From a phage, in sequence record OZ346222.1: DNA of 64,000 nucleotides. One strand, written 5' to 3'. This document shows positions 28,358 through 63,999 of the stretch, in pieces. The position numbers were made by a program, and so were the translations under genes. Each line of letters opens with the position of its first letter. The stretch's first letter is position 1. The notes beneath the pieces were generated by a model. It saw nothing but the letters and a program-made list of their open reading frames with translations, searched no databases and was not told the origin of the DNA.

Positions 28358-29610
28358 ACTAGACCCTCTTCAGATATTTCTGGCTGACTCTTCAGGTCTG
28401 TGTGGGAAAAGCCAACCTCTCCGGCGGCGGGGAGGGGGTCAATTAAAAAAAATTACGTGGTGCATGAAGCGCTCTTCAGGTAAGGCATGTGTTATGGGAT
28501 GAAACCCTCTTCAGGCAATGATATTTGTGGGTGTGATATTTGCTGGAAAGCCAGATATGACGGGACTCCTGGCGGGGCAGGGGTAGTACAGACAGGGAAA
28601 ATATGGGGGATGTAGTTGGGGAAATTGATCAGACAGGTAGAGTATGGAATATGTTACAAGTATGTTAAATAGGGAGGATGAATATCTGCAGGATTTGTGT
28701 GTAAAATCAAAGACTTAAGTGGTGTTGTGGTATTTTCTATAAATAATTCAAGTTTAATAGGTAATATTTGTCTCTATCCACTTTGTGTGGTAAACAGATT
28801 CAGATGAAATTGGTTTACAAGTGTATACATAATATACAAATTAAAGATACAAGAAACCCCCCTCCCCCTTCGGCTACCATTCACCTTTTCCTCTGACTGG
28901 TACTTAAACACTTATTCAGACTCTTCAGGTTATCACCCATATATCATATGGCAGTGACTGGTGTCCTCCGGCCCCTCTTTCGTCACCCGTCCGCTTCGCC
29001 ATGCTAATGCCATAGCCAATGGTTCGGTTGTTCACTCTGTTCACTCAGGTGTATCTCCATACCCCTTCAAACCGAAGAGAACAGAAAACCCGAATTACTC
29101 GGTAAAAGAAAAGAGAAGAACTTAATTTTATCAGGATAGGCAAGAATGTCAAGGCATGACTGCTCACTAAACAAGCAAACAGTCATGTGTGGAAGGTAAG
29201 TGATTGTGGTGGTGGGAAATTTAGTTGAAAGATGTGTTATAGGTGCGCTTCCAGCACTTTGGCCGGGCAGCTAATTGTGTGTCAGTCCAGCGGTTCATCC
29301 TCTACTTCACTGAAATCAATGTTCATGGTCTCCTCCCAACCATCGATCTCAGCACAAGAGTGGAGTTCTTTAGGGTTTACTCCCAAAGCCTCAGCAACAG
29401 AGTCTATATTTAACACCTCTGGCAGGTATGATTCATCGAATTCAAGGTAAATCAGGCCACGAGTGTTGTCAGCTCCACCAAATATCTCTATCTTCATGAA
29501 ATCTCCTCTGGAAATGAGAGTGTGAACAGGGTTTTATACGTTCTAATGCACAGGAATTATACACGTTTGCCTCTTCAGGCCATGCTTTAGCATGAGGAAC
29601 CTGTGTGGGC
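28358..29610. repeat. dispersed CTCTTCAG(G) motifs, often followed by TGTGTGGG
   Basis: Six copies on the same strand (about 28358, 28388, 28465, 28505, 28918, 29567) within a G/T-rich non-coding stretch. Confidence 0.6.
29282..29497 (-). CDS. hypothetical acidic protein (71 aa)
   Basis: Last gene of leftward block; begins MKIEI like several paralogs. Confidence 0.45.
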   Translation of the reverse strand: MKIEIFGGADNTRGLIYLEFDESYLPEVLNIDSVAEALGVNPKELHSCAEIDGWEETMNIDFSEVEDEPLD

Positions 29611-29618
29611 TCGGTGCT

Positions 29619-29831
29619 TCATAGTCTACCACCTCTGAACTCTTCGTGCTCAGGCATAATAGAGAACCAGATATCTACGATGTCCTCCCACGTCAGGTCA
29701 TCAGCCTCAGGATCTGTCTGGGACGAAGATGAAGAGTCCTCAGAATCTAAGTTTTCCTCTTTAACTGGCTCATCCAAGGGACATATGGTCACTCCTTCGG
29801 ATGTCTCTTCAGATGCATGTGTGTTGATCAT
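29619..29831 (-). CDS. hypothetical highly acidic protein (70 aa)
   Basis: Asp/Glu/Ser-rich. Confidence 0.4.
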   Translation of the reverse strand: MINTHASEETSEGVTICPLDEPVKEENLDSEDSSSSSQTDPEADDLTWEDIVDIWFSIMPEHEEFRGGRL

Positions 29832-30191
29832 GTTCCCCCCGTGAGTATTCCGGCAACAGCCGCTATGGAAGTAATGATCATCAGGATCACCACTAAAACT
29901 TCAGACAATGTTCTCATTGTGTATTCCATATTCTCCAAACTGTGTGTGGATACTATCACGGGAGCGGTAATGTGTCAACAGCAACGCCGCGAGGGTTTGG
30001 TTAAAATCCGAGCGTATGGTGATTTGGGTCAAAACGGACGTGCGTTCTCGCTACGCTCGAAAGAGAGACTTGTTTGTAGAAAGCTCTTAAACGCTCTGTA
30101 ACGAGATTATCTGTCCAAGGTATGCAATCGTGCACCAGATAAAGAAAAGGACGCCACAGAGCGTCCTAGGTGTCTTAAATTTGATATTTTG

Positions 30192-30491
30192 CTATACCCA
30201 TGAGGGCTTATCAAGGTTGGAGTAGCTGAAAGGTGTCAAAAGGTGACTGTCAAAATCCCTCAAACTATCCAAATCTTTTTCCTCGTCCTGACACCATCTG
30301 TGCCTACATTTATTGTTGTAGTGCATAGAATGCATAGCGTTCTGCAACTTAACAGGTACAAGTGATTCAGGAGTAGATAGTATTGTTGGGTATGCCAGAA
30401 TCACCTCAAACAGTGGAAACACATCGAAACTAAAGTCTATCTCTGCAGAGGTTGATGGCATATAGGAGTATTTAGCCGCCTTTGTAGACAT
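30192..30491 (-). CDS. hypothetical protein (99 aa)
   Basis: ATG after GAGGTGG; upstream stop overlaps RBS. Confidence 0.45.
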   Translation of the reverse strand: MSTKAAKYSYMPSTSAEIDFSFDVFPLFEVILAYPTILSTPESLVPVKLQNAMHSMHYNNKCRHRWCQDEEKDLDSLRDFDSHLLTPFSYSNLDKPSWV

Positions 30492-30499
30492 AATCCACC

Positions 30500-30673
30500 T
30501 CACACAGGTTTGATAATACCTTTACCGAATAATTCTTCGTATCTAATCTTATCCGGATCCCACTCTTGGATAATTTCGAAGACAATATCCAACCCAGGGA
30601 TAATCACTTCTCCAGTGTCAAGTTTGGCAAGAACAAAACCAGAAGGCTGAATGGTTTCCCAGTTGTGCTTCAT
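30500..30673 (-). CDS. hypothetical protein (57 aa), or 3' part of a frameshifted gene
   Basis: Open frame overlapping 30618..30827 by 56 nt in another frame. Confidence 0.3.
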   Translation of the reverse strand: MKHNWETIQPSGFVLAKLDTGEVIIPGLDIVFEIIQEWDPDKIRYEELFGKGIIKPV

Positions 30674-40736: not shown

Positions 40737-41051
40737 CTACCAGGTTACTGTCAAGTAGGCAACCGTATTATTTTTCTCTGGGGAGATGCCAACAACATCT
40801 ACCTGCAGACCTCCTGCCCTTAAATCTCCAACAATGTGCGGGAAGTAATCTGAGAGATGCGAGGGTAGATTTATCGAAAATCCGCACCCCAGAAAGCCTG
40901 CTAACGCTTTATTTTGTATCTCCCCTACAATCGCATCATAAATGGAGTTAAGCTCGTCAGGGAGTGTTACAGGGCGTTTTAGCGCTAGCTGGTGTAATTT
41001 GTCCTTAGCACTCATTTTCATTTCAGGTCTACCTCTGGGGGTGCCAACCAC
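40737..41051 (-). CDS. hypothetical protein (104 aa)
   Basis: In gene array. Confidence 0.45.
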   Translation of the reverse strand: MVGTPRGRPEMKMSAKDKLHQLALKRPVTLPDELNSIYDAIVGEIQNKALAGFLGCGFSINLPSHLSDYFPHIVGDLRAGGLQVDVVGISPEKNNTVAYLTVTW

Positions 41052-41551
41052 ATAAACGGCGGCAAGTCTAAACGGTTTTTCTTATCCCACACAAAATATG
41101 CATATGCTTGCCCGTCAGTTCTGCCGTTTGATTGAAATGATGGACGCTTAGATATTGTGATCACAGTAGTAGGTGCATTATCAAGCCACCATTCAAATCT
41201 GGCTTTGCTTTCCAGAAAATTAAGACGCAAAAGCATAATAACTACGTCAGCATCTTTCAACGCCTTGTCTACAAACTCACGAGCCAGGCTGTATGGTGGG
41301 TTGGTGATAATACAGTCAACATGGTTGTATTCTGTATTCAGATAGTCAACACCTTCTTGTATTTCTCCCCATGCAGATCCTAACGGCATACGGGAGTAGA
41401 ACACACCTGAGGCACTATTCCTGCAAGGCTCTAAGTAGGTCCAGTCTTCTGGGAACGGAATAAGGTCATACAGCCCTTCTGCACACCACTCCGGTGTCAC
41501 ATACTCATCGTAGGCGTTACGTTGTTCATCAGGTTTTCTAGCACAAGTCAT
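41018..41551 (-). CDS. DNA amino-methyltransferase (N6-adenine/N4-cytosine type), small
   Basis: Motif IV IITNPPYS. Confidence 0.55.
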   Translation of the reverse strand: MTCARKPDEQRNAYDEYVTPEWCAEGLYDLIPFPEDWTYLEPCRNSASGVFYSRMPLGSAWGEIQEGVDYLNTEYNHVDCIITNPPYSLAREFVDKALKDADVVIMLLRLNFLESKARFEWWLDNAPTTVITISKRPSFQSNGRTDGQAYAYFVWDKKNRLDLPPFMWLAPPEVDLK

Positions 41552-45125: not shown

Positions 45126-47249
45126 TCAGCAACCACAACTTCCGTAGTGCTTAACTCGCTCGATAACTTCCGCTTGCTTACCTTTATTGTAAGGACGGGA
45201 GTTAGGACTGGAAAGGTATCCAGACACACGTCGAATTACACTGATCGTTCCCTCTTCATGGTTTCCACACTCTGGGCATACAAAGCCTTTAGCTGTTGCA
45301 CTGAACTCACCAGAGAAACCACACTTGAGACATTTATCCACAGGTTGGTTAATACCAAAATACATAATGTGTTTATACCCGAAGTCAACAAGAGCCTCTA
45401 AAGCATCCAGGTTGTTTTTCAGGTTAGGTGTTTCTACGTATCCGATGTTGCCACCAGAGGAGATCATAGCAAAACCTTCCTCATACTCCCACTTATCAAA
45501 AGGAGAGCTATTTATCCATACTGGCTGATGGAAACTGTTGGTGAGATATTCATGCTCGTGCTTCAACACTTCCGGATATTCACGATCCAGACAGGTTGCA
45601 GCTTTATAGCATAGACTCTCAGAAGGAGTGCCGTACAAGCTAAATGCTAGTCTACTTTCCTTCTTGTATCGCTCACAAGCATCTCTCATGTGCTGAAGGA
45701 TTCCAAGAGCTAAAGCCTTGTCACCCTCTCTGCCCAAAATCTGACAGGTTTCATACACACCGATATACCCAATACTGATGGAAGCGTACCCGTCATAGAA
45801 GAGTTTATCAATACTCTCTTCAGGATCCAGGCGAGCAAGAGCGCCTTCACACCACATGATGGGGTTCTGCCCTGCCTTTGTTCCTTTTAGACGATTAACC
45901 CTTACAAGGTGAGCCTCGTATGCAAGATCCAAGTATTCGTCAAGAACTGCAAAGAAATCAACACCTTCCGTCTTAGCTTTTGCCGCAATCATTGGCAGGT
46001 TAAGGCTAACAACGCCTAAGTTAAATCTGCCAAGGTATTTCTCCTCGCCTGTTTCCAAGTCATTGTATTTGCTAAGAAAACTCCTGCAACCCATGCTAGT
46101 TACTTTGCCATCTGTCGAGCCTGTCACTTTTCTATTTAGTGGTACAGATACGAAGTCAGGATAGATACGTTCTGCACAGCATTCCAGAGCTAATCGTTTC
46201 AAATCATAGTTAGGATCCCCAGGGTTCATGTTGACACCCTCTTCCAGGAAGAACAGCACTTTAGGGAACACAGGTGTGATACGTTCTTCACCAAGACCCA
46301 TTTTGTGGACTTTCAGGTAGTTTTTGGTAATCATTCTACCAAAGACCGAGGTATCCAGTCCTAAACTCAATGTGATGAATGGAGTTTGCCCGTTGACAGA
46401 AGTTAACGTGTTGATTTGATAGAGCAAAGTCTGCATGCTGTCAAATACGTCTTTATCTGTCATTTGCATTGCAACAGTTTCAGCATCCGGCAACCAATGT
46501 TCCTGGCAAAATTTAAGGTTCTTCTCATAGGTTGCTTCAGCATACTGTGCCAGATAATGATCAATATGGCTCATAGTCTGACCACCATATTGAGCACTAG
46601 CTACCGCACTAGAGATTTGGCTAAGGATTGTTGTTGCAACCCCTATTGACTTCGGCTTACTGACATGGGCGTTACCAATGTTGAATCCGTTTTCCAACAT
46701 ATCTGGATAATTTACCAAACAACAGTTTGTTAACGGACTGATCAAGTAGTCAAGATCATGCACATGGATGAATCCTTTATTGTGCTCTTCGGAGACACGG
46801 TCTGGCAGGATCTGTGTTGATGCAAGGTGTTTGCTAAGAATACCTGCAAGCAGGTCGCGATGAGTGTGTACATGATTAGTAGGCTTATTTGCGTTTTCTT
46901 TTGTAAATTCATCACAAGTTCGATCCAAGAAGCCACTAATATCTGCAAGCAGTTTTCCACCTGCCTCTCTGTTATTATCTCTTGTCTGTCTATACTGGAT
47001 GTATTCTCTGGCTGCACATTTTAAACCCATATCCATAAGAGCATCTTCAACAAGGATATGGATATTTTTTACAGAGATCGTGCACTGGTCGGTTGGTAGA
47101 TTGTTAGCAACAACTTCATTAACCGCGCAGGCGATCCGGTAAGCTTCTTCTTCAGTATGTCCAGACTCAAGTAAGGCGGACTCTGCCGCCTTGATCACCT
47201 TAATTCCGTTATAGAACTCTTCTCTACCGTCCCGTTTTACAACTTTCAC
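45126..47249 (-). CDS. nrdD: anaerobic ribonucleoside-triphosphate reductase (class III)
   Basis: 707 aa; C-terminal glycyl-radical motif RVSGYL and Cys-rich zinc ribbon. Confidence 0.85.
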   Translation of the reverse strand: MKVVKRDGREEFYNGIKVIKAAESALLESGHTEEEAYRIACAVNEVVANNLPTDQCTISVKNIHILVEDALMDMGLKCAAREYIQYRQTRDNNREAGGKLLADISGFLDRTCDEFTKENANKPTNHVHTHRDLLAGILSKHLASTQILPDRVSEEHNKGFIHVHDLDYLISPLTNCCLVNYPDMLENGFNIGNAHVSKPKSIGVATTILSQISSAVASAQYGGQTMSHIDHYLAQYAEATYEKNLKFCQEHWLPDAETVAMQMTDKDVFDSMQTLLYQINTLTSVNGQTPFITLSLGLDTSVFGRMITKNYLKVHKMGLGEERITPVFPKVLFFLEEGVNMNPGDPNYDLKRLALECCAERIYPDFVSVPLNRKVTGSTDGKVTSMGCRSFLSKYNDLETGEEKYLGRFNLGVVSLNLPMIAAKAKTEGVDFFAVLDEYLDLAYEAHLVRVNRLKGTKAGQNPIMWCEGALARLDPEESIDKLFYDGYASISIGYIGVYETCQILGREGDKALALGILQHMRDACERYKKESRLAFSLYGTPSESLCYKAATCLDREYPEVLKHEHEYLTNSFHQPVWINSSPFDKWEYEEGFAMISSGGNIGYVETPNLKNNLDALEALVDFGYKHIMYFGINQPVDKCLKCGFSGEFSATAKGFVCPECGNHEEGTISVIRRVSGYLSSPNSRPYNKGKQAEVIERVKHYGSCGC

Positions 47250-47524
47250 TTTTTCTCTCCAAAACCATTCTTAACAAAAGAGATGAAATCGTCGGCACCG
47301 CCTATATGGACACTGTCAAGATCGCTTTCTAAGAAGATCTGTGGCAACGTTCTGGGGACAATTGGACTGCACTTCTCAATAAGCTCTTCTTTTGTGTAGC
47401 CCTCGCCAAGTGTCTTATATACAAAAGGCAGACCTTTGCTGATTGCAAATTCTTTTGCTCTGACACAATGTGGGCAGTTATCCTTACCGTAAATGATGAT
47501 GAAAAAAGATTTTTCGCAGCTCAT
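47246..47524 (-). CDS. glutaredoxin/NrdH-like redoxin
   Basis: CPHC active-site motif; 92 aa; between nrdB and nrdD. Confidence 0.75.
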   Translation of the reverse strand: MSCEKSFFIIIYGKDNCPHCVRAKEFAISKGLPFVYKTLGEGYTKEELIEKCSPIVPRTLPQIFLESDLDSVHIGGADDFISFVKNGFGEKK

Positions 47525-47527
47525 ATA

Positions 47528-48676
47528 TTAAAACTCCCAAATTTCTTCTTCAGCGTCGTTAACAGTTGTGTTGACGCGGTAGTCAGTGTTCGACATTTCT
47601 TGGTTCGCCGTCTGTTGTAATGAAGGTTTCATCCACACCTGCATAAACGGTAGCGGGTCCTTTGTTGGCGGCACAAAGTCTTTGTCGATGTCGTAGTAAT
47701 CATAAATCGGTGAGCAGTTATAGTCAACCCACTCTTTAAGCAACGGTGAGTTAAGACCTATAATCGCTCTTCCTTCGCTGAAAATATAGTCACTCCAACC
47801 GTACTCTTTGGTTCGTACTTCATCAAGAATCTCTTTTAACTCCCCCTTTATCTCAAGGAAGCTTTTCTCCCATGCGGGATCATTAAGCAAGATATCAATG
47901 ATGGCAAAATCACCTTTCGAATGTAGCATTTCGTCAAGCATGATTTTTTGAACAAGCTGCGCCACCTGAACAAAGATACCCTGTTCAGCTACTGCGAAAG
48001 TGCATGCAAAACTTGCAATAAACTCAATACTTTCCAGAGCTAAAAGCGCAAAAAGCGCTCTAAGAATGCATTTCCGCACAATATCTTCTTCAACACTAGA
48101 AGGATCCAGGCGGTATTTTGCACCAATAACCTCAAGCTCTTGCATGTATTTGACAATAACGCCGGATCTGCTCAGAACGTTTTGGTTTTCCTGAATCTCT
48201 TCTATAATCTCACGGGCATTGGGGAGGCATTGTCTAACAATCTCTGAGTAAGTTAGTGCGTGAAGAACTTCAATCTCTGACTGTTTCATCAATAGAGTGA
48301 AAAGCTCACTATTAGTGATGAATGGTGAAAAGAGGCAGATGATCGATCTTGCCGCAACGCTATCAGCCTCCCATTGCCACATCAAGGTCTGCACCATCAC
48401 GTCATAAGTTGACTTTGAGCATGTTACAAAATCTGAAATAGATTGCGACAAATCCACTTCATCCTCTGCCCAATCTTGCTCTTTTTGTTTTTTGTATAGT
48501 TCAAACAGTTGTGGATATTTTTTGTTGATAGAGTCGTACATACCCATTTGCTGTCCCAGAAACAGCGGATAGTCACCAGTTTTATGAGCGGTGTTCTCAG
48601 CATTAAATACAGCCATTATTCTACCTCTAAAATGGGGCCGAAGCCCCTTTAAAATTATAGTGCACAGCTTTCGCAA
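47528..48676 (-). CDS. nrdB: ribonucleotide reductase class Ia small subunit
   Basis: Di-iron ligand motif EVLHALTYSEI; 382 aa; adjacent to nrdA. Confidence 0.8.
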   Translation of the reverse strand: MRKLCTIILKGLRPHFRGRIMAVFNAENTAHKTGDYPLFLGQQMGMYDSINKKYPQLFELYKKQKEQDWAEDEVDLSQSISDFVTCSKSTYDVMVQTLMWQWEADSVAARSIICLFSPFITNSELFTLLMKQSEIEVLHALTYSEIVRQCLPNAREIIEEIQENQNVLSRSGVIVKYMQELEVIGAKYRLDPSSVEEDIVRKCILRALFALLALESIEFIASFACTFAVAEQGIFVQVAQLVQKIMLDEMLHSKGDFAIIDILLNDPAWEKSFLEIKGELKEILDEVRTKEYGWSDYIFSEGRAIIGLNSPLLKEWVDYNCSPIYDYYDIDKDFVPPTKDPLPFMQVWMKPSLQQTANQEMSNTDYRVNTTVNDAEEEIWEF

Positions 48677-50970
48677 TACGGATCTTCAACTGAACTATCT
48701 GCAATCAAAGGATAGTTCTTTCTGGTTTCATCTTCAGCCTGTTTCTTGGCATGAAGTTCCTCTGCCAAGGAGTCACCAGCACCAACCCTAGAGTTTAAAT
48801 AATACCATGTCTTCATCCCGAATTTAGTGGCACGGATAAGGTACCCTAACTGCTCCTTCATTGAAATTTTACCATCTTTCAACTTGGTGTAGTCTATGTA
48901 TAAATCCGCGCTGATTGCCTGACCTGTGAATTTTTGAATCACGGCATACATATCGATCATGTCGTTAGTATCAACGTCCCAAGCCGAGGTGTAATACTCT
49001 TTCAACTCATCATAGTCAGGAACGATAAACAGCACCTGCCCTTGTGGCGACTTTTTAAAGATAATGTGCTCACGGACAGGATAAACCCCGTTAGTGGTGT
49101 TTGTTGCCAGCGAAGAGCTTTCATTAGGCATATATGCTTCAAGAACGCTATTACGTAGCCCACCATTCTCAATGATTTCTTTACGTAACCCTTCCCAATC
49201 CTGTTTAAGAGAAGGATCTTTCACCACGCTATCGACCTCTTTGTTATAGGTGTCGATTGGTAACCAACCTTCTGGATATTTTGTTTTATGCATCCACTCG
49301 CAGACACCACGCTCTTTTGCCAACCGTAAACTTGCCTTATGCAAGCTGTAGCTGTGAAGTTCTGCAAGATCGTGAACGAGCTGTTTACTTTCAGGAGACC
49401 CGTAAGTAACCTTGTGGCTGGCAATAAAATGTGCAACATTGGTAAGGCCAACCCCGATGGATCTGCGTTTTTTAACTGTGCTTTCCATATTTTCATACGG
49501 ATATGTCATGATTTCCATAACATTGTCAATCATAAGCACCGTATAGTATGCAACATCCTCATACTCCTCTGGAGTAACCCTCCCAGCTACAAGAGATGAC
49601 AGGAAGCACAATGCAACCTCTCCATCATCAGCATCGTACTTGAAGATATTACGCATATCTGAATAGCCTTTTGTCGGGAGGGCTATTTCTGCACACAGGT
49701 TGCTTGAATAGATCACATCTTTAAAAGGTGTATGTCTATTCATCTCATCTGTCCAGTATACGTACAGCCTTCCCACCTCAGTGCGCTGCGTGATCAGTTC
49801 AACAGCAAGATCTCTAGCTCGGATCCATGTTTTAGGAATACTGTCATCTTTAGCAATACGATCAACCTCTGCATCAAACTCCTCCATAGACATGGTGAAG
49901 ATACCCTCATGCAGTTGAGGCGCGTGCTTATAAGAAACAAGCATCCAATCTAAATTCTTAGCCACACGGTTGATAAACGACCTATTAATACCGATGGAGT
50001 AGTCCATGGTGTTGATTCTTTTTGAAGCAACAGTCATAGGGTTTCTCAAACGGATTAGCTCATCAATCTGCGGGTCCAGTGCAAGGAATGATACTGTTGC
50101 AGAACCACCACGTGATTGTTGTCTGTTCTCCTTAACCCCAGCATCAATACCTCGATAATATGGAATCTTACCCATATGTTTAATAGTGTTACCACGAACA
50201 CCATCGCCTGCAGATCTTGAGGATAAGTAGTAGCCGATACCTGCTTGGTTAACCGTCATTGTGTACGCAACTTCACGTGCCACACCAATAGATTTTGCTG
50301 TATCGTCAGCTTTTATTACACAACAAGATGCATACCCTGTCTTACCTGTGCGCAGCCCGTTTAAGTACGGTGTTGGGGCATTGATCTTTAAGTCGGACAG
50401 ATAAGTGTATAATTTTACAACATCGTTGATACGACGTTCTTTCGGCATATTCTTCATGACAGCCATTGCTATCCCCATAAACATCATCTGGGGAGATTCA
50501 AACAAGGTGTCTTTAAGAGTATCCTTGATCCCGTATTTGTCGCGAAACTGTTTAAGGACTGCATAGCCATAACCGAGATCTTTACTGTGGTCAATAACAG
50601 CGTCTAAAGTGTTTAGCTCGGTAAAGCTATAACCCATATCCTCCCAATAACCTTTCTCAACCATGTCATTGTAAAATGATGGTAAGGAAGGGATCTTTGT
50701 AAACCCTCCAAAAGCCTCTTTATAGATCTGACCAATAAGAACACGACCAGCCATACGGGAATGTGCTTCGTCTTTACGGCTAACACAAGAGTCTATAATA
50801 GCTTGGTTAACTTCTTTGGTTGTACATCCATCATACAACCGCTTGTAGGCATCCAGTGCAATATGTGACCAATTGCCGTTACCATCGTCACCGAAAATAG
50901 CTGCCTTATTTAAACGTTCTGGATCGAATGCCACTTCACATCCGTTGCTTTTAATTACCTTGGTGATCAA
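48655..50970 (-). CDS. nrdA: ribonucleotide reductase class Ia large subunit
   Basis: 771 aa; active-site NLCAEI; C-terminal CESCAL redox cysteines. Confidence 0.85.
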   Translation of the reverse strand: MITKVIKSNGCEVAFDPERLNKAAIFGDDGNGNWSHIALDAYKRLYDGCTTKEVNQAIIDSCVSRKDEAHSRMAGRVLIGQIYKEAFGGFTKIPSLPSFYNDMVEKGYWEDMGYSFTELNTLDAVIDHSKDLGYGYAVLKQFRDKYGIKDTLKDTLFESPQMMFMGIAMAVMKNMPKERRINDVVKLYTYLSDLKINAPTPYLNGLRTGKTGYASCCVIKADDTAKSIGVAREVAYTMTVNQAGIGYYLSSRSAGDGVRGNTIKHMGKIPYYRGIDAGVKENRQQSRGGSATVSFLALDPQIDELIRLRNPMTVASKRINTMDYSIGINRSFINRVAKNLDWMLVSYKHAPQLHEGIFTMSMEEFDAEVDRIAKDDSIPKTWIRARDLAVELITQRTEVGRLYVYWTDEMNRHTPFKDVIYSSNLCAEIALPTKGYSDMRNIFKYDADDGEVALCFLSSLVAGRVTPEEYEDVAYYTVLMIDNVMEIMTYPYENMESTVKKRRSIGVGLTNVAHFIASHKVTYGSPESKQLVHDLAELHSYSLHKASLRLAKERGVCEWMHKTKYPEGWLPIDTYNKEVDSVVKDPSLKQDWEGLRKEIIENGGLRNSVLEAYMPNESSSLATNTTNGVYPVREHIIFKKSPQGQVLFIVPDYDELKEYYTSAWDVDTNDMIDMYAVIQKFTGQAISADLYIDYTKLKDGKISMKEQLGYLIRATKFGMKTWYYLNSRVGAGDSLAEELHAKKQAEDETRKNYPLIADSSVEDPYCESCAL

Positions 50971-51767: not shown

Positions 51768-52751
51768 TTAACCTTTCACGAAGTGGTTATTAAGCAGTTG
51801 TCTGTGCTGAACCCACCCACAAAAGTTGGCAGACCAGAATTTACCATCACGGTCTTGATGGGTTACACCTTCCTGCCAAGTACTGATGTCTTGTGTGATT
51901 TCACATGAAGACAGGTAGTAGTTTAAACGTTCCATTGCGTTATCGTGATCCATAGGTGTTGCCTGGTGCTCGTAAGGGCTTGCATGAATACGATCCCCAC
52001 CAATCAATTTTTTAGCCACACTATCTGCCTTTTCAAACGTGCTGTCAATATTTCGATAAGATACTTGTGCACAGCAACTAGCACTGATAGACAGAGCTTC
52101 TTTAGTATCGAGAATGCAGAGCTTTCCTTCTGTGTCACGTACAGCGTAGTTAAACTCTCCGTCCAAATAAACGTGCTCTACATATGGGGTGTGCCATTGA
52201 CCCGGTTTAAGGATTTCAGGAGTGCTATTCTCAAGAGCCTCCCACATACAATTAGCTAACATCTGAATCGTAGGATCCGCATCGTGCCAGCAACGGAGGT
52301 GGAAAAAATTATTCCACTCGGTGCTTGTTACAACTGTTTTCATGCGCTGGAACGGCTCCACTAAGCGGTTACATACTTGCTTATGGTAACCAGCAAGGGC
52401 GAACTTCTCTGCATGCCAAGCGGCGTTTTTTGCAGCTTCTTTCCAAAACTCTTCAGGAGTTAGCTCCATGTCAGTGTACTCTACACGGATCTTTTGATCG
52501 TGTTCCCCACCATCTTCCATTCCTCGCTTATTTACACCGAAGCGAACTGGCATTGCCGGATTCTCCACAATCTGTTGCAGCATCTTGCCGACAGGTACTG
52601 CACGGGAAGACATGGCGTTTCGGCTGAACACTCGGTGCGTCATAAGCTCTGAGTGAATAATTCGAGGATACTCTAGTTCAAAAGTGGTGATACGCTTACC
52701 TTTCTCGGAAATGCTGTCAGCAATAATCTTTGCAGTGCACAGTTTTAGCAT
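51768..52751 (-). CDS. thyX: ThyX-like flavin-dependent thymidylate synthase family protein
   Basis: THRVFSRNAMSSR resembles the ThyX RHR-x7-S signature with R to T at first position; 327 aa. Confidence 0.55.
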   Translation of the reverse strand: MLKLCTAKIIADSISEKGKRITTFELEYPRIIHSELMTHRVFSRNAMSSRAVPVGKMLQQIVENPAMPVRFGVNKRGMEDGGEHDQKIRVEYTDMELTPEEFWKEAAKNAAWHAEKFALAGYHKQVCNRLVEPFQRMKTVVTSTEWNNFFHLRCWHDADPTIQMLANCMWEALENSTPEILKPGQWHTPYVEHVYLDGEFNYAVRDTEGKLCILDTKEALSISASCCAQVSYRNIDSTFEKADSVAKKLIGGDRIHASPYEHQATPMDHDNAMERLNYYLSSCEITQDISTWQEGVTHQDRDGKFWSANFCGWVQHRQLLNNHFVKG

Positions 52752-52951
52752 TATTTAGCTCTCCTTGTTTTAATTTTGGAAATTTCGTCTGGGTTTATGT
52801 TGGCCTTAAATGCAAGGTATCTGTTGAACATGTCAGAGCACATATCTTGGGTGATCCTAGAGGCATACACTAGCTTACCTCCTAGATCATACACCTCTAG
52901 CCAGTCACCGTATCTGACTACAGGATCGCCACCTTTAGAACATCTGCCCAT
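52751..52951 (-). CDS. hypothetical protein (66 aa)
   Basis: Overlapping stop/start. Confidence 0.4.
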   Translation of the reverse strand: MGRCSKGGDPVVRYGDWLEVYDLGGKLVYASRITQDMCSDMFNRYLAFKANINPDEISKIKTRRAK

Positions 52952-52952
52952 T

Positions 52953-53546
52953 TCAAATACCTTCTAAAAATTTTCCTATTTTATACCAGCTATTAGCGGT
53001 ATAGTCAACACTGACCTTTAACTCCTCGAATTGCTCATAAGGCGTATCTTTTAGGATTTTAATAACTTCAGGTCGTGAAGCGAATTGGTTCAGGTATTCA
53101 TGCCTGTCGTCAATTATAACATCTACAGCCACATTCCCTTTGAAATGTGTGGCGTAGAAGCCGTGGCCCTGGGTGTGATCGTCCAGATCCATAAAATCAC
53201 TGGTCCAACGCTTTAAGAACCTTGATTTAGATGCAAGGTGACCTTTCTTGCATACCGAGATAAATGCAAGCTTGTGACCACGAGCCACCAAATCTTTCAT
53301 AACCTCAATAGCCCCCTCTTCAGGCTTAAGGAAGTCGTAGAGGAACGGATCACTCCAGAAATCAAAAGGTCCTATGATGTTTTCTTTGGGACGATCAGGC
53401 CAATACTTTGACAGATCGTAATACATTAGCCCATTAGAAGGTTTAGCTACTGTCTTACTGGCTGGACCATACAAACGCTCCAACCACTCCCACCATGCTG
53501 TTCCTGAATCTACCAGTGTCAAATCTACATCAATTCCGATTAACAT
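52953..53546 (-). CDS. HAD-superfamily hydrolase, putative 5'(3')-deoxyribonucleotidase
   Basis: N-terminal IGIDVDLTLVD (HAD DxDxT motif); within nucleotide-metabolism cluster. Confidence 0.5.
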   Translation of the reverse strand: MLIGIDVDLTLVDSGTAWWEWLERLYGPASKTVAKPSNGLMYYDLSKYWPDRPKENIIGPFDFWSDPFLYDFLKPEEGAIEVMKDLVARGHKLAFISVCKKGHLASKSRFLKRWTSDFMDLDDHTQGHGFYATHFKGNVAVDVIIDDRHEYLNQFASRPEVIKILKDTPYEQFEELKVSVDYTANSWYKIGKFLEGI

Positions 53547-54157
53547 TCTTCTTGGGCCTCTTTAGCATCAATATACTTGAACACAATCTCCGATGCACAC
53601 TCCCAAGGTGCACCTTCAGGGTTTACAACATCAAACTCAACCCCTTTTATTCCGTTCTTTTCCAGACTTAGATAGGTTCTGGAATCATTTCCCCAGTCAT
53701 ATCCTACACGGTGAATACGGAACAACAACAGATCTCCACCTGTGCTGTATGCGTACTCGCTAAGGCATGCCAGCTCCTCTTTGAATCCACCATCGGAGTA
53801 AACAACAGCCCCTTTACCTTCAGGGAAATCTTTCTTCAAAGATGCGACTGCGGCTTTACCGAAAGCATCTTCACCAAAGATAGGTTTAATCAGATTTTCA
53901 CTACAATGGATCATCCATTCTCGCGGAGAAACATGCTTGCCGTCTATCATTAAGAAAGGGCAAGGCTCTTCTTTGTAGTGGCGGTCATAAAGTGCATTCC
54001 AGAGTTGAGGAGTTACACCAGCTGCCTTAATTGCCACACTGAAGAGCATCTCCTTAACCTCACGGTGGTGTGAGTTAGGAATAGCTTCCAACAAGAGATC
54101 TGCAATGTGATCCTTACCACTGCTAGGTGGGGCGTTAAGAACAATAATATCCATCAA
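53540..54157 (-). CDS. putative deoxynucleoside monophosphate kinase (P-loop)
   Basis: LNAPPSSGKDHIADLL resembles the T4 gp1 P-loop (RSGKDTTADF). Confidence 0.5.
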   Translation of the reverse strand: MMDIIVLNAPPSSGKDHIADLLLEAIPNSHHREVKEMLFSVAIKAAGVTPQLWNALYDRHYKEEPCPFLMIDGKHVSPREWMIHCSENLIKPIFGEDAFGKAAVASLKKDFPEGKGAVVYSDGGFKEELACLSEYAYSTGGDLLLFRIHRVGYDWGNDSRTYLSLEKNGIKGVEFDVVNPEGAPWECASEIVFKYIDAKEAQEEC

Positions 54158-54372: not shown

Positions 54373-54831
54373 TTAGAAGTTTGTTTTTACACGTCCCTTC
54401 TCATCAACCTCGTTGTTAGCTAAAAGCGTTACAAAGTCTGTGAAACGAACATGAAGAACCCTTTTCTTATCAAGGTATCCTAAAGCCACCCCTGAGAAAT
54501 TTAGCATCAAAGGGGCTAAAGAAGCTCTGGCACTGAAATGCTGTTGTTCTACCCTTCCAACACCCTTAGTGTAGGATGGGTTAAGATTGTAAGTTCTGAA
54601 TCCCAGTTTTGTTGGAGCTTTAGAATTAAAAACGACTTTATAGCGTTTCTTACTCAACTTATGCTCCAGGATAAGCATTCCCTTATCACCTTTGATAAGT
54701 TGAAAATCTGTAAAGTGCTCTTTTAAGACGAAAGGTAGTGCCAGTCCCATCGCCTGTCCTCTTTGTACCGCTGTCTCACCAAAAGCTTTTGCATCAGTAA
54801 GTTCTTTGGTCAAGTCTATGCTTTTGATCAT
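54373..54831 (-). CDS. hypothetical protein (152 aa)
   Basis: In gene array. Confidence 0.45.
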   Translation of the reverse strand: MIKSIDLTKELTDAKAFGETAVQRGQAMGLALPFVLKEHFTDFQLIKGDKGMLILEHKLSKKRYKVVFNSKAPTKLGFRTYNLNPSYTKGVGRVEQQHFSARASLAPLMLNFSGVALGYLDKKRVLHVRFTDFVTLLANNEVDEKGRVKTNF

Positions 54832-55642
54832 ACCTGGTCTCCAAAATGTATTGTAGTTCTTTCTTACCTATACTCTTCATTCCAGCAGTCTTACCTGCTT
54901 CTTCTTGAAAAGAAGAATAGCATTCAGCAAACACTCTGTCAACACCGTTAACTAAAGATTTTATGAAATATGTTGATTCTTCAGATTTTGGGTCATCATC
55001 CCCCAATACTTTTCCAGCATTATACCCAACACGTCTTACACAGAAGTCGTAGTCATCTGGTGTGCTAAAAGAAAATAACTTATTCTCTCCAATCTCTACA
55101 GGATCCCTATTGCACGCCTTTTTCTCCCAAATTTGGAAAACACATGGCACGTCATAAGGTTTGCCATTAAGTAAAAACGAATTCTTAGGGCACCTTTCGC
55201 TGTAGACAAGGTGCATCGACATGTCCAGTTTGTTTGCAAAAAATATTTTTTCAAATGTCCGTGGCAAGATGAAGGCTATAGCCCCTCCAAGCTCTAGCAA
55301 TGATGCACAATGGTTAAAGAATTTGCAAGCTAAGGATGAATTCTTGCCAAATGGTGGGTTACCTATGAAGACATCTGCCTTGGGATGCACCTCCAAGAAG
55401 TTTGCCTGAATGCACGGTGTTGGTCCTTCAAATTCAGGATCTGGTACTAAATCGTACGACAGTATCTCTGAAAATAGTTTTGAAAAAGAACCCCTTCCAG
55501 CAGAAGGCTCAACGTATGCACAATTCCCATACTTATCTTTTACTTTACCAACAAGATATTCTGCATACTCAGGGTTTGTGTAGTATTTGTCGTTGGACTC
55601 TTTCTTGCTCAAAGTGCCTCCAAAAGGAAAAGGGAGGCGCAA
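54794..55642 (-). CDS. DNA N6-adenine methyltransferase-like
   Basis: Motif I VEPSAGRGSF; motif IV FIGNPPFG. Confidence 0.65.
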   Translation of the reverse strand: MRLPFPFGGTLSKKESNDKYYTNPEYAEYLVGKVKDKYGNCAYVEPSAGRGSFSKLFSEILSYDLVPDPEFEGPTPCIQANFLEVHPKADVFIGNPPFGKNSSLACKFFNHCASLLELGGAIAFILPRTFEKIFFANKLDMSMHLVYSERCPKNSFLLNGKPYDVPCVFQIWEKKACNRDPVEIGENKLFSFSTPDDYDFCVRRVGYNAGKVLGDDDPKSEESTYFIKSLVNGVDRVFAECYSSFQEEAGKTAGMKSIGKKELQYILETRYDQKHRLDQRTY

Positions 55643-55657
55643 GCCTCCCTATAATTG

Positions 55658-56641
55658 TTAGATTATCTGAATCAGGGTATTTTTCATTTCTTCTCTGGTG
55701 CGGATGTTGTTACGGTCACGAACAACAGATCCACAACCTTCGCAGCGGTATGTTTTAAATGCACTCAGTTGAGTATACGCCAAAGCTTCTTCCTCGTGAA
55801 GGTGTTCTCCACCACAGCGTGGGCAACGAACTTTTGGCTCCTCATCCTGGTAGTACAATGACATGTTGGGGTGCTGCTTAGCAAACGGGCGAGCCAGCAA
55901 ATACAGGCCTTCCAGAGATAGGATATCGCCAACATTGTACTCCCGCATCTGTTTAAACGCCTCAAGATCACCGTGAACACACTTGATCCACATTTCAAAT
56001 GTGTGGTCAATCAGTTTCTGTCGGGCAAGTTGGAAGTATTTGCATGCATACTCCAAAGTGTTTGCATTCAAACGGAATGCCTTCTTGATCATTTTAAGGG
56101 TGTCAACCTCTTTGTAGGGGCTTGTTGGAGGCAATCCGTGAAATGCAAATCGTTGGTTGGCCCACCCACAGTCAAAACCTGAATTGTGGGCTACTGCGAC
56201 ATCACATTTATCCAGATAATACCACAAATCCTGAATCAATTCGAGATCATTGTGAATATCCTCATCCCACATTTTGTAATCAGGAAGAGCGCAGTCAACC
56301 ACACTAGGACTGTCTAACCACTTACCTGCGAAAGTTAGCATGTAGGGCATAATTTCAATACCGCAGGTTTGAATGTTGGTCTTATAGTGCCCAAAGAACC
56401 AGCCGTTTGTTGGAGATGTCTCTGTATCATACACCCAAACTTTAGCACCTTTGTGCTCTTCAAGGAAGCGCTCCGTTGCTTCTCCTACAATCTCTGACAT
56501 ATTCTCTTGTGCACGTTTAAGCTGTAGTCGGATCCAGCTCTCACGTGACTCACGGCCTAAAAATTCACGAGCAATTTGTCTATTAGTGTATCCCTGTTGC
56601 TTTAGTGTTAAAATTTGCTCAAGAGTTAACTTTGTCATCAT
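55658..56641 (-). CDS. DnaQ-like 3'-5' exonuclease with N-terminal HTH and C-terminal zinc ribbon
   Basis: Exo I VYDTETS; Exo II AHNSGFD; CPRCGG ... CEGCG. Confidence 0.55.
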   Translation of the reverse strand: MMTKLTLEQILTLKQQGYTNRQIAREFLGRESRESWIRLQLKRAQENMSEIVGEATERFLEEHKGAKVWVYDTETSPTNGWFFGHYKTNIQTCGIEIMPYMLTFAGKWLDSPSVVDCALPDYKMWDEDIHNDLELIQDLWYYLDKCDVAVAHNSGFDCGWANQRFAFHGLPPTSPYKEVDTLKMIKKAFRLNANTLEYACKYFQLARQKLIDHTFEMWIKCVHGDLEAFKQMREYNVGDILSLEGLYLLARPFAKQHPNMSLYYQDEEPKVRCPRCGGEHLHEEEALAYTQLSAFKTYRCEGCGSVVRDRNNIRTREEMKNTLIQII

Positions 56642-63360: not shown

Positions 63361-63999
63361 TTAAATATACTCTGCTACATCCTTGAAGCTCGAAGGCTTC
63401 ATGATCTTACCTTTACTGTCAAGGAATATGATAACTTTATTACCGTTGTAGAATTCTTCCTTAGCAACAAAACCTTCATATCGACCATCAAAGCGTCGCT
63501 CAAGATCTTTAATCTCCAACTCTATGAGTTGTTCAGCAGGCATATCTGCACTGGCACCGTGTGAATACCGTAGATGGTTGACCCGTGCAAACTTGCTGTC
63601 ATTCGATTTGAGAACCTTACGCATCATCCCGCACACATCGCCGCGAAGCTGGAACAGCAAAGCTGTTGACAACTCCGCTAAACGGTAAGCTGACGCTCTT
63701 TGCTTGGATGTGTTTTTCGCAGCGATCAGTGTGTCATAGAACTCACCGATCTTGAACTTAAGACCTCGTGGATTATCAAACAGGTTTGACCACTTTTCGT
63801 GATTGTCATTAACAAGATAAGCTGCATAACTTGTGACAACGTGAAGATCGCAGGCCTCCTTTAGCAGGTGATCTCCACCATCACCTTTCTCCAGCTCTTC
63901 CAAAACTTCATTGAACTCTTCCTCAATGAAGCTAAGCTGTAATTCGAATGGTGTGTATGATTTTTTCACTTTAGCTGCCACACGGTTCCAGTTTTCCAC
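63361..63999 (-). CDS. MazG-like nucleotide pyrophosphohydrolase domain protein
   Basis: N-terminal FIEEEFNEVLEELEKGD ... LLKEACDLHVV resembles MazG EExxE/ExxD metal-binding helices; start at window edge. Confidence 0.4.
   Translation of the reverse strand: MENWNRVAAKVKKSYTPFELQLSFIEEEFNEVLEELEKGDGGDHLLKEACDLHVVTSYAAYLVNDNHEKWSNLFDNPRGLKFKIGEFYDTLIAAKNTSKQRASAYRLAELSTALLFQLRGDVCGMMRKVLKSNDSKFARVNHLRYSHGASADMPAEQLIELEIKDLERRFDGRYEGFVAKEEFYNGNKVIIFLDSKGKIMKPSSFKDVAEYI

Follow-up and report, generated by a model that had tools for sequence, protein, structure and literature searches.

The window, a stretch of 64,000 nucleotides from sequence record OZ346222.1, belongs to a Vequintavirus, an rV5-like coliphage. 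Its minus strand carries, at 51768..52751, a complete ORF of 327 amino acids, read directly from the sequence, whose product is a candidate flavin-dependent thymidylate synthase of a permuted, ThyX-like class. The neighboring features are as follows:

45126..50970, minus strand: ribonucleotide reductase (RNR) block, from ORF translations with which the phage Murica annotation agrees, consisting of nrdD (45126-47249), glutaredoxin (47246-47524), nrdB (47528-48676), and nrdA (48655-50970)
51768..52751, minus strand: ThyX-like gene, 327 aa
52751..52951, minus strand: 66-aa ORF upstream of the ThyX-like gene, unassigned function (PHROG_4903)
52761..52766, minus strand: ribosome-binding site AAGGAG, 9 nt 5′ of the ThyX-like ATG, read directly
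52953..53546, minus strand: NT5C-type HAD 5′-(deoxy)nucleotidase-like protein (Pfam PF06941, 27.1 bits; PHROG_420)
53540..54157, minus strand: deoxynucleoside monophosphate (dNMP) kinase, which would turn dTMP into dTDP (PHROG_139, E 2e-44)

The ATG of the ThyX-like gene shares one nucleotide with the TAA of the 66-aa ORF, an overlap by which the two genes appear to be translationally coupled. Within the window, the gene has the RNR genes on one side and the dNMP kinase on the other. A reading of the sequence alone had named as adjacent genes the kinase and the HAD nucleotidase, which are indeed close by, and a MazG-like gene, which is found some 10.6 kb off, where the window ends (63361-63999); the product of the latter gives only a weak PRA-PH match and is annotated in Murica as “nucleotide pyrophosphohydrolase”. 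Of the three methyltransferases that it had also counted, the two that were checked (41018-41551 and 54794-55642) harbor an NPPF motif and resemble, by weak matches, the N6-adenine DNA methyltransferases EcoRI methylase, Dam, and Eco57I. They were considered as nucleotide-modifying partners and rejected on account of this adenine DNA methylase character.

The protein matches the Pfam Thy1 profile (PF02511) with 38.1 bits against a gathering cutoff of 24.8 (E 1.7e-9), with only positions 60-191 of the 191 in the profile being matched, by aa 23-179. The NCBIfam thyX equivalog (TIGR02170) scores 39.5 bits, below its trusted cutoff of 87.9. The AF2 model (pLDDT 91.9, pTM 0.90) has the three-dimensional ThyX fold: all Foldseek matches in the first 50 listed rows of the PDB search are ThyX or PolB, and of the 31 best named BFVD matches (ranks 1-31), all but two uncharacterized proteins are thymidylate synthases. 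The initial description of the protein as ThyX-like is thus borne out by both profile and fold. A tblastn search with Thermotoga maritima (Tm) ThyX misses the gene, even at E 10, and neither the single phage sequence nor a profile of its close relatives finds a ThyX chain in the PDB. A wider family profile retrieves solely canonical ThyX, at E values of 0.003 and above. The PDB holds no solved structure for any member of the permuted subclass, and neither a biochemical or genetic account nor any description of the subclass was found in the literature searched.

The segment E35-L-M-T38-H39-R40-V-F-S43-R-N45-A-M-S48-S49-R50-A51 corresponds to the canonical R78-H79-R80-x2-S83-x-N85-E86-x-S88-G89-R90-Y91. 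The core H-R-x2-S-x-N-x2-S-x-R is shared with the canonical ThyX proteins (T. maritima TM0449, PBCV-1 A674R, Mycobacterium tuberculosis Rv2754c, and Helicobacter pylori; PF02511, TIGR02170). The full signature, R-H-R-x7-S followed by G/R-R-Y, is altered at two positions, its first Arg being Thr, as the sequence-only reading had seen, and its Tyr being Ala. That reading had taken the substitution for an oddity of a single gene, a view contradicted by the relatives. Among 133 diverse family members, chosen as representatives at 50% identity, the conservation of T38, H39, R40, S48, R50, and A51 is 96%, 99%, 83%, 99%, 99%, and 99%, respectively. A scan of species-representative genomes yielded at least 516 confirmed relatives, and in the best 80 of these cellular homologues, Thr is found at this position in 78, while the other 21 checked signature positions are kept almost without exception. 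Thr38 as a lineage quirk is therefore rejected. Only five of the 133 have Lys or Arg at position 38, and all five keep the candidate compensating residues R30, H187, and R317, so that they give no information on compensation.

The arrangement of the segments along the protein is the following:

52203..52736, minus strand: ThyX core (aa 6-183), a β hairpin, the motif helix, and helices and a strand corresponding to Tm ThyX residues ~60-204 (hhalign, Pfam Thy1, DSSP of the model)
52599..52640, minus strand: altered ThyX signature T38-H39-R40-x2-S43-x-N45-x2-S48-S49-R50-A51 (direct reading, family conservation, residue mapping)
52458..52574, minus strand: family-specific insertion (aa 60-98) at the canonical active-site loop, with invariant G77-M78 (hhalign gap against Tm ThyX; conservation)
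52110..52202, minus strand: β-rich linker (aa 184-214) from the core to the relocated segment, with invariant W186-H187-x-P189 (DSSP, conservation)
51963..52109, minus strand: relocated segment (aa 215-263), helices with C-A-Q-V-S231-Y and H256-A-S258-P-Y-E261-H262 (family profile against the PDB, hhalign)
51771..51962, minus strand: tail at the C-terminus (aa 264-327), specific to the family, in which N309, Q315, and R317 are invariant (conservation)

In canonical ThyX, β1-2 is followed by α1-α2 with H-x-S/T-P-F-E-H, the motif helix, and the core. This order is not followed here, as the α1-α2 segment that precedes the core in the canonical enzymes comes after it in the phage protein. Two significant hhalign alignments to canonical ThyX are non-colinear with each other: residues 12-183 align to Tm 52-204 (probability 89%, E 2.5e-6), and residues 204-272 align to Tm 5-69 (probability 93%, E 3e-7). 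The family profile likewise places aa ~215-263 on residues 11-61 of Tm ThyX (E 0.003), and the top 14 PDB matches are all ThyX-family chains (13 ThyX and one PolB paralogue). When the Tm sequence is doubled, a single family-HMM domain crosses the junction from C- to N-terminus, covering Tm 177-220 and then Tm 1-61. On the basis of these alignments, the relocated segment is homologous to the N-terminal α1-α2 of canonical ThyX, with its “AARVSF … H53-E-T55-P-F-E58-H59” motifs. PolB (PDB 4P5A) is colinear with canonical ThyX, in contrast to the phage protein.

The sequence-only reading had correctly remarked that the protein is longer than typical ThyX (327 aa versus 216-275 aa in the seven canonical proteins compared) but overlooked the cause, which is the non-colinear, permuted order of the ThyX segments together with insertions. 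The extra length is due to the relocated helical segment, the enlarged active-site loop, and the conserved C-terminal tail; relative to canonical ThyX, the loop insertion amounts to 35-40 aa and the tail to 65 aa. In the DSSP assignment of the AF2 model, the insertion is mostly loop with short strands, and the linker contains strands at 192-196, 199-205, and 211-214; H187 and P189 of the linker are 100% conserved. The tail has no significant match in canonical ThyX (third hhalign alignment, probability 0.4%), and its R317, Q315, and N309 are conserved at 100%, 98%, and 96%, respectively, and are kept in all 80 of the best cellular homologues of at least 516. In some relatives, inteins are placed exactly in the active-site motifs, including the relocated one, with one site at H256|S257. 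Relatives of doubled length (520-680 aa) were considered as tandem ThyX fusions that might explain the permutation and were rejected, as they contain inteins instead.

Tandem duplication is the usual origin of circular permutations, and the rearrangement is not a clean circular permutation because, in the DSSP assignment of the model, a strand (aa 6-15) remains in front of the core and the relocated helices have short strands ahead of them. Both points would suit a ThyX core with a partial second repeat that has decayed behind it; the C-terminal H-x-S-P-F-E-H would then be a relic outside the active site, and flavin and folate would be bound in a fundamentally different manner. This is, however, quite unlikely. 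The conservation of S231, H256, S258, E261, and H262 is 96-100% among about 130 representatives and in the 80 cellular homologues (~100% for S231, H256, and H262), which is unexpected for a relic; inteins home into H256|S257 in several lineages, as is typical of active-site motifs; and the N-terminus holds no alternative copy of the flavin- and folate-binding motifs.

The catalytic inventory of ThyX, in which the roles of S30, H53, R78, and S88 follow published work (PMC11940539, PMC6514825), is largely retained. In the core, H79, R80, N85, S88, R90, R147, N169, and R174 of the Tm enzyme correspond to H39, R40, N45, S48, R50, R129, N148, and R153, while in the relocated part, S30, H53, T55, E58, and H59 correspond to S231, H256, S258, E261, and H262. 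The contacts that appear to be shared with canonical ThyX are the equivalents of S30, H53, T55, E58, H79, R80, N85, S88, R90, R147, N169, and R174. Most of the kept residues are 96-100% conserved, those equivalent to the uracil-reading arginines R90 and R174 at 99-100%, and about 40 positions are near-invariant in the family, among them nearly all substrate and cofactor contacts.

In contrast, four residues are replaced family-wide, namely Arg78 (T38), Tyr91 (A51), Glu86 (Ala or Ser), and R74; E86 and R74 are invariant in the seven canonical sequences. Arg78, of the RHR motif, stabilizes the anionic reduced flavin in canonical ThyX, and mutation of Tyr91, the lid residue after S-x-R, is reported to slow flavin oxidation about 1000-fold in the T. 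maritima enzyme (PMC11940539). The chemistry of the family may therefore differ in detail. Arg78 and Tyr91 may have been replaced by R30, by the enlarged loop that contains G77-M78, by W186-H187, or by R317, all of them candidates; the C-terminal tail may possibly compensate for the lost active-site residues.

The family comprises approximately 5,000 clusters at 50% identity, and the sequenced phages that carry a member number over 1,000, among them rV5-like, ICP1, PAK_P1-like, N4-like, and phiCbK-like groups. Chromosomal family genes are found in Saccharibacteria, Eremiobacterota, and Pseudanabaena; in Eremiobacterota, the syntenic flanks establish that the gene is chromosomal. In Saccharibacteria, the gene comes after the nusG/L1 cluster and is followed by dCTP deaminase in five of five loci and then by thymidylate kinase in four of the five. 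In phages, the family gene is one ORF away from nrdB-nrdA in Pakpunavirus, 1.5 kb from dCTP deaminase in the N4-like phage Moo19, and 3 kb from an RNR gene in ICP1. The family gene is accordingly associated with the dTTP pathway. In one counter-example to its being the sole thymidylate synthase gene, on a Nanosynbacter MAG contig, it adjoins a classical thyA-folA pair; the permuted gene and classical thyA-folA can thus co-occur.

In a complete Vequintavirus genome, tblastn for ThyA, canonical ThyX, FolA, Dut, and Dcd, with E. coli queries for the enzymes other than ThyX, gave no significant hit for any of these five (all E > 0.7), and a single thymidylate synthase is listed in the rV5 paper (PMC3606486). 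The ThyA family and the phage dUMP/dCMP hydroxymethylases carry out the same step, in which a one-carbon unit is transferred to C5 of a pyrimidine dNMP, and ThyA-family genes in phages commonly adjoin RNR and dNMP kinase genes, as is the case here. However, ThyA has an unrelated fold and mechanism and depends on DHFR, and this phage genome has no ThyA or DHFR homologue. As with canonical ThyX, for which no DHFR is needed, the phage gene keeps company with genes of dNTP synthesis.

The sequence-only reading had further left room for a pyrimidine-modifying role other than plain dTMP synthesis. Spelled out, the enzyme would produce a pyrimidine nucleotide modified at C5 in another way (e.g., 5-hydroxymethyl-dUMP) or would use another substrate (UMP or dCMP), and a non-canonical base would enter the phage DNA with the help of the nucleotidase, the kinase, and the MazG-like protein. 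The family-wide loss of Tyr91 (lid/general acid), Arg78, and Glu86, which shield or activate the reactive center, would be compatible with such a change, as would the score below the thyX equivalog cutoff. A ThyX paralogue of altered specificity does exist in PolB, which methylates UMP/dUMP in polyoxin biosynthesis (PMC5954106; 4p5a), although PolB is encoded in a Streptomyces antibiotic gene cluster and the phage gene in a context of phage DNA metabolism. In two contexts, which were uninformative as to function, metagenomic phage relatives also lie near MazZ-like pyrophosphohydrolases and glycosyltransferases.

Against these points, the uracil-reading arginines are retained along with most of the flavin- and folate-contact residues, and the same signature occurs in the chromosomal dCTP deaminase/thymidylate kinase clusters of Saccharibacteria, while relatives in unrelated phages adjoin RNR or dCTP deaminase genes. 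In the phage genome, tblastn turned up neither a second thymidylate synthase nor a DHFR. Known 5-hmdU pathways rely on ThyA-family enzymes (PMC8989533). Thymidine hypermodification would call for a ThyA-family dUMP hydroxymethylase, a 5-hmdU DNA kinase, transferases, and restriction-resistant DNA; tblastn finds no ThyA homologue in the genome, and enzymes of those pathways are unannotated in the Murica region and in the parts of APECc02 examined. In PMC8594841, the Vequintavirinae are called “exceptionally susceptible” to restriction-modification, which counts against a protective DNA hypermodification. The two methyltransferases checked lend the modification idea no support, given their resemblance to adenine methylases. 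A modified pyrimidine product is thus quite improbable, and the genomic context favors ordinary dTMP synthesis. A catalytically dead or regulatory protein that binds nucleotide or flavin, and that would for example act as a dUMP sink or modulate the thymidylate metabolism of the host, would fit the absence of two residues whose importance for catalysis is reported for Tm ThyX (PMC11940539). It is scarcely credible, however, in view of the near-invariance of nearly all substrate and cofactor contacts and the conservation of the gene on the chromosomes of Saccharibacteria, which have small genomes, in a cluster of the dTTP pathway. In many phages that carry RNR genes, moreover, the protein is the one candidate for a thymidylate synthase.

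The gene probably encodes a genuine flavin-dependent thymidylate synthase of a distinct, rearranged ThyX/Thy1 subclass. The enzyme would catalyze the reaction dUMP + CH2-THF + NAD(P)H -> dTMP + THF. The catalytic core (aa 6-183, T-H-R-x7-S-S-R-A) comes first, and the former N-terminal helical segment (aa 215-263), placed after it, is predicted to reach the same active site and to contribute the Ser that binds flavin O4 and, from H-x-S-P-F-E-H, the His that stacks on flavin and folate. The active-site loop is enlarged (aa ~46-98) and the conserved tail (aa 264-327) added. During infection, the enzyme would supply dTMP by a ThyX-like route with no need for DHFR, and the neighboring dNMP kinase would pass this dTMP on, in company with the ribonucleotide reductases of the phage.

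A further, only tentative proposal is that the permuted T-H-R…S-S-R-A clade constitutes a mechanistically distinct class of flavin-dependent thymidylate synthases that operates without Arg78 and the Tyr91 lid/general acid. Their functions would then fall to residues recruited from the loop insertion, from the W-H-x-P linker, or from the added tail (e.g., R317), and the subunit arrangement or inhibitor sensitivity might be different. The radical version, in which the phage enzymes would yield another product instead of dTMP, is very unlikely.

ThyX is an antibacterial drug target under study as well as a model of flavin-mediated methylene transfer, and its mechanistic models rest on few colinear enzymes, those of T. 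maritima, M. tuberculosis, H. pylori, and PBCV-1. The gene in this window is most likely the ordinary dTMP synthase of the phage and no marker of exotic DNA chemistry. Moderate interest attaches not to the gene, which is ordinary, but to the rewired enzyme class. This would be a very large and little-described sister class of ThyX, with the active site mostly kept, a different order of segments, and Arg78 and Tyr91 absent. If it is indeed mechanistically distinct, it would be the thymidylate synthase of a large part of the virulent phages of Gram-negative bacteria, as well as of Saccharibacteria, Eremiobacterota, and Pseudanabaena. One characterized member would test how essential Arg78 and Tyr91 are, reveal how the active site is assembled between subunits in a permuted ThyX, and provide an experimental ground for the routine annotation of such phage genes as “thymidylate synthase”.

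The window derives from a Vequintavirus, an rV5-like E. coli myophage, and its translation confirms that the ORF of the ThyX-like protein is real.

51768-52751, minus strand: ORF of the ThyX-like protein, 327 aa

The ATG of this gene is preceded at 9 nt by an AAGGAG ribosome-binding site and shares one base with the stop codon of a 66-aa ORF upstream. The long minus-strand block harboring it comprises nrdD, glutaredoxin, nrdB, nrdA, two small ORFs, and the ThyX-like gene, followed by the 66-aa ORF, an NT5C-type HAD phosphatase, a dNMP kinase, small ORFs, a DNA methyltransferase, and a polymerase exonuclease subunit. The counterpart in phage slur16 is 100% identical, and Murica gp181, annotated as "FAD-dependent thymidylate synthase", is 99.7% identical.

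The exonuclease subunit (55658-56641, minus strand; PHROG_403) is a separate 327-aa protein with a C-terminal zinc-ribbon, which indicates a split polymerase arrangement. Two predicted methyltransferases (41018-41551 and 54794-55642, both minus strand) resemble N6-adenine DNA methyltransferases, with weak EcoRI-methylase, Dam, and Eco57I matches and an NPPF motif in the latter; a "putative adenine methyltransferase" annotated in phage APECc02 ends just upstream of the window start. The GC skew flips from positive to negative at ~29000-30500 of the window, where plus-strand coding also switches to minus-strand coding, and the cumulative skew peaks near 29-30 kb. The orthologue in Escherichia phage ECP26 is annotated as two pieces of 245 and 97 aa (BFVD A0A4Y5TVX3 and A0A4Y5TVY4), and an HNH homing endonuclease is annotated beside or inside the ThyX-like gene region of phage AV124; mobile-element activity or sequencing frameshifts may account for these annotations.

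Clustering at 90% leaves more than 7,400 relatives of the protein, and when representatives at 50% identity are searched exhaustively, 5,050 match at E<1e-3. Among phages, 1,036 records carry a relative; rV5-like, ICP1, Pakpunavirus, N4-like, phiCbK-like, Cellulophaga, Flavobacterium, and Campylobacter phages are all represented. Canonical ThyX in phages forms a separate population of 2,682 records, chiefly actinophages and cyanophages. The sequence-only reading had noted a Thr in place of the first Arg of the ThyX signature, and this holds well beyond the window: position 38 is Thr in 96% of 133 diverse representatives, in which H39, S48, R50, and A51 are each 99% conserved. Thr38 and the altered signature are thus a family trait rather than a quirk of a single gene.

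Active-site residues were mapped by hhalign, with a manual check of the equal spacing of H79-R90 in Thermotoga maritima (Tm) ThyX and H39-R50 in the family. In the signature region, Q75, H79, R80, S83, N85, S88, and R90 of Tm ThyX correspond to E35, H39, R40 (83%), S43, N45, S48, and R50, and in the rest of the core, R147, N169, and R174 correspond to R129, N148, and R153. A relocated segment retains S30, H53, T55, E58, and H59 as S231, H256, S258, E261, and H262. In contrast, R/K78, Y91, E86, and R74 are replaced family-wide by T38, A51, A/S46, and A/S34, respectively. In ThyX, R78 is aimed at N1/C2=O of the reduced flavin, S30 and S88 bind the flavin O4, and H53 stacks against the flavin or the folate pterin; Y91 hydrogen bonds to H53 and R90, and flavin oxidation is slowed ~1000-fold when Y91 is mutated (PMC11940539). 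The first Arg of the RHR motif also contacts dUMP, and the Tyr acts as a lid over C5/N5 (PMC6514825). On the basis of this mapping and these roles, the family appears to keep the residues that bind uracil and folate and most of those that bind flavin, but it lacks R78 and Y91, both important in current mechanistic models. An invariant R30, eight residues ahead of the motif, occupies the position of the dUMP-binding Arg66 of Helicobacter pylori and Arg87 of Mycobacterium tuberculosis (PMC6514825).

When the family profile is compared with the PDB, ThyX is matched only through the C-terminal region of the profile: residues ~215-263 (C-A-Q-V-S-Y-R ... H-A-S-P-Y-E-H) align to Tm 11-61 (A-A-R-V-S-F ... 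H-E-T-P-F-E-H), whereas residues 22-50 align to Tm 62-90. An hhalign profile-profile comparison with seven canonical ThyX proteins places profile residues 204-272 on Tm 5-69 (probability 93%, E 3e-7) and 12-183 on Tm 52-204 (89%, E 2.5e-6); both alignments are significant and mutually non-colinear. Against a doubled Tm sequence, a single HMM domain runs uninterrupted from Tm 177-220 into Tm 1-61. Thus the alpha1-alpha2/H-x-S-P-F-E-H segment, which precedes the core in known ThyX, follows it in the family. The length beyond typical ThyX, also noted from sequence, is confirmed at 327 aa and stems from the reordered segments together with three additions.

aa 60-98: insertion of 35-40 aa in the active-site-loop-equivalent region, with invariant G77-M78
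Beta-rich linker: carries W186-H187-x-P189
C-terminal tail, 65 aa: invariant N309, Q315, and R317

A clean circular permutation is disfavored, as a strand at the N-terminus (aa 6-15) remains paired with the first strand of the core in the predicted structure model; a transposed segment, which probably arose via partial duplication, is therefore the better description. Conservation, rather than model coordinates, suggests where the relocated helices would lie.

That the C-terminal motif is a non-functional leftover of duplication is improbable, since it is conserved almost totally and even hosts an intein site. The C-terminal half, lacking in canonical ThyX, is as well conserved as the core, with H187, P189, S231, H256, and R317 at 100%, H262 at 99%, and S258 and E261 at 96% of the 133 representatives. 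Long members (520-654 aa) carry inteins of the Intein_splicing plus HNH or LAGLIDADG type (relatives P0126, P0131, P0137, P0146, P0150, P0155, P0161, P0180, P0200, P0209, P0214, P0215, P0230, P0249, and P0266). At least five insertion sites, H33|C34, after R40-x-L, S48|S49, ~3 aa after R153, and H256|S257, all fall within the most conserved motifs, the relocated one included. Crude ORF extension gives frames of 916 and 695 aa around the ThyX-like match in two Eremiobacterota loci (L040 and L082), which might reflect a fusion, an intein, or an artefact of the start codon.

The family extends beyond phages, with at least 516 relatives confirmed in species-representative genomes. Pseudanabaena, Eremiobacterota, and Saccharibacteria are well represented among the best 80 of these. 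At the T-for-R position, 78 of the 80 have Thr, one has Ser, and one has Ala, and the other 21 checked signature positions are nearly always kept. In Eremiobacterota, synteny of the flanks (xanthine-dehydrogenase-like, M48 peptidase) extends over 6-8 of 8 species, and the gene is therefore chromosomal there. In Saccharibacteria, including a complete 1.04-Mb genome, nusG/rplA precede the gene, dCTP deaminase directly follows it in 5/5 loci, and thymidylate kinase comes next in 4/5, a textbook dTTP-pathway cluster.

L095:10004-12248 (also loci L044, L049, and L075): conserved Saccharibacteria cluster of ThyX-like, dCTP deaminase-like (PF22769), and thymidylate kinase (PF02223) genes, a short way downstream of the nusG and ribosomal protein L1 genes

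On a 3.5-kb Candidatus Nanosynbacter MAG contig (JARKOR010000180.1; L036:1305-3498), the family gene directly adjoins folA and a classical thyA whose product is 48% identical to E. coli ThyA. As a caveat, both synthase types can thus co-occur, here as a rare case; such co-occurrence is known in some bacteria (PMC2826268).

The window and the remainder of phage APECc02 together cover a complete 136-kb Vequintavirus genome, in which tblastn detects no ThyA, canonical ThyX, DHFR, dUTPase, or dCTP deaminase (all E>0.7). The rV5 paper lists a single thymidylate synthase (PMC3606486), and a lack of DHFR agrees with ThyX chemistry. In unrelated phages, too, the gene is linked to dNTP genes: nrdB-nrdA lie one ORF away in Pakpunavirus, dCTP deaminase 1.5 kb away in the N4-like phage Moo19, and an RNR gene 3 kb away in ICP1. 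Distant members on metagenomic phage contigs (L009-L012; P0277, P0369) have contexts unlike the RNR context of the window, near PF18909 (dGTP_diPhyd_N, MazZ-like pyrophosphohydrolase) genes, several glycosyltransferases, sugar-nucleotide enzymes, and a faint DUF1599 match.

Vequintavirinae are described as exceptionally susceptible to restriction-modification systems (PMC8594841), which disfavors a protective thymine hypermodification. A product or substrate other than in dUMP to dTMP conversion, raised earlier as a pyrimidine-modifying role, could draw on the loss of the lid Tyr and Arg78 and on the PolB precedent, but it is very unlikely: the uracil-binding arginines are conserved, the gene has a dcd-tmk context in cells, and this restriction sensitivity also speaks against it. 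A dead or regulatory protein is very unlikely with ~40 near-invariant positions. Several independent lines, namely the single thymidylate synthase candidate, the dNTP linkage, the chromosomal clusters, and the restriction sensitivity, make ordinary dTMP synthesis most likely, and the protein is with good probability a working flavin-dependent dTMP synthase.

By fold and profile, the protein belongs to the Thy1 superfamily and most likely works like ThyX. It is no canonical ThyX: it falls below the equivalog threshold, lacks the full RHR...S-x-R-Y signature, and is not colinear with canonical members. GenBank routinely annotates the gene as "thymidylate synthase", and the probable function is therefore not new. 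PDB sequence and profile searches yield no solved structure that represents the class, and full-text literature searches returned no description of a permuted ThyX or T-H-R variant; the rearranged, Arg78/Tyr91-less architecture and its breadth thus appear to be undescribed so far. Within its phage group the window gene itself is ordinary; the enzyme class behind it merits biochemical and structural study.
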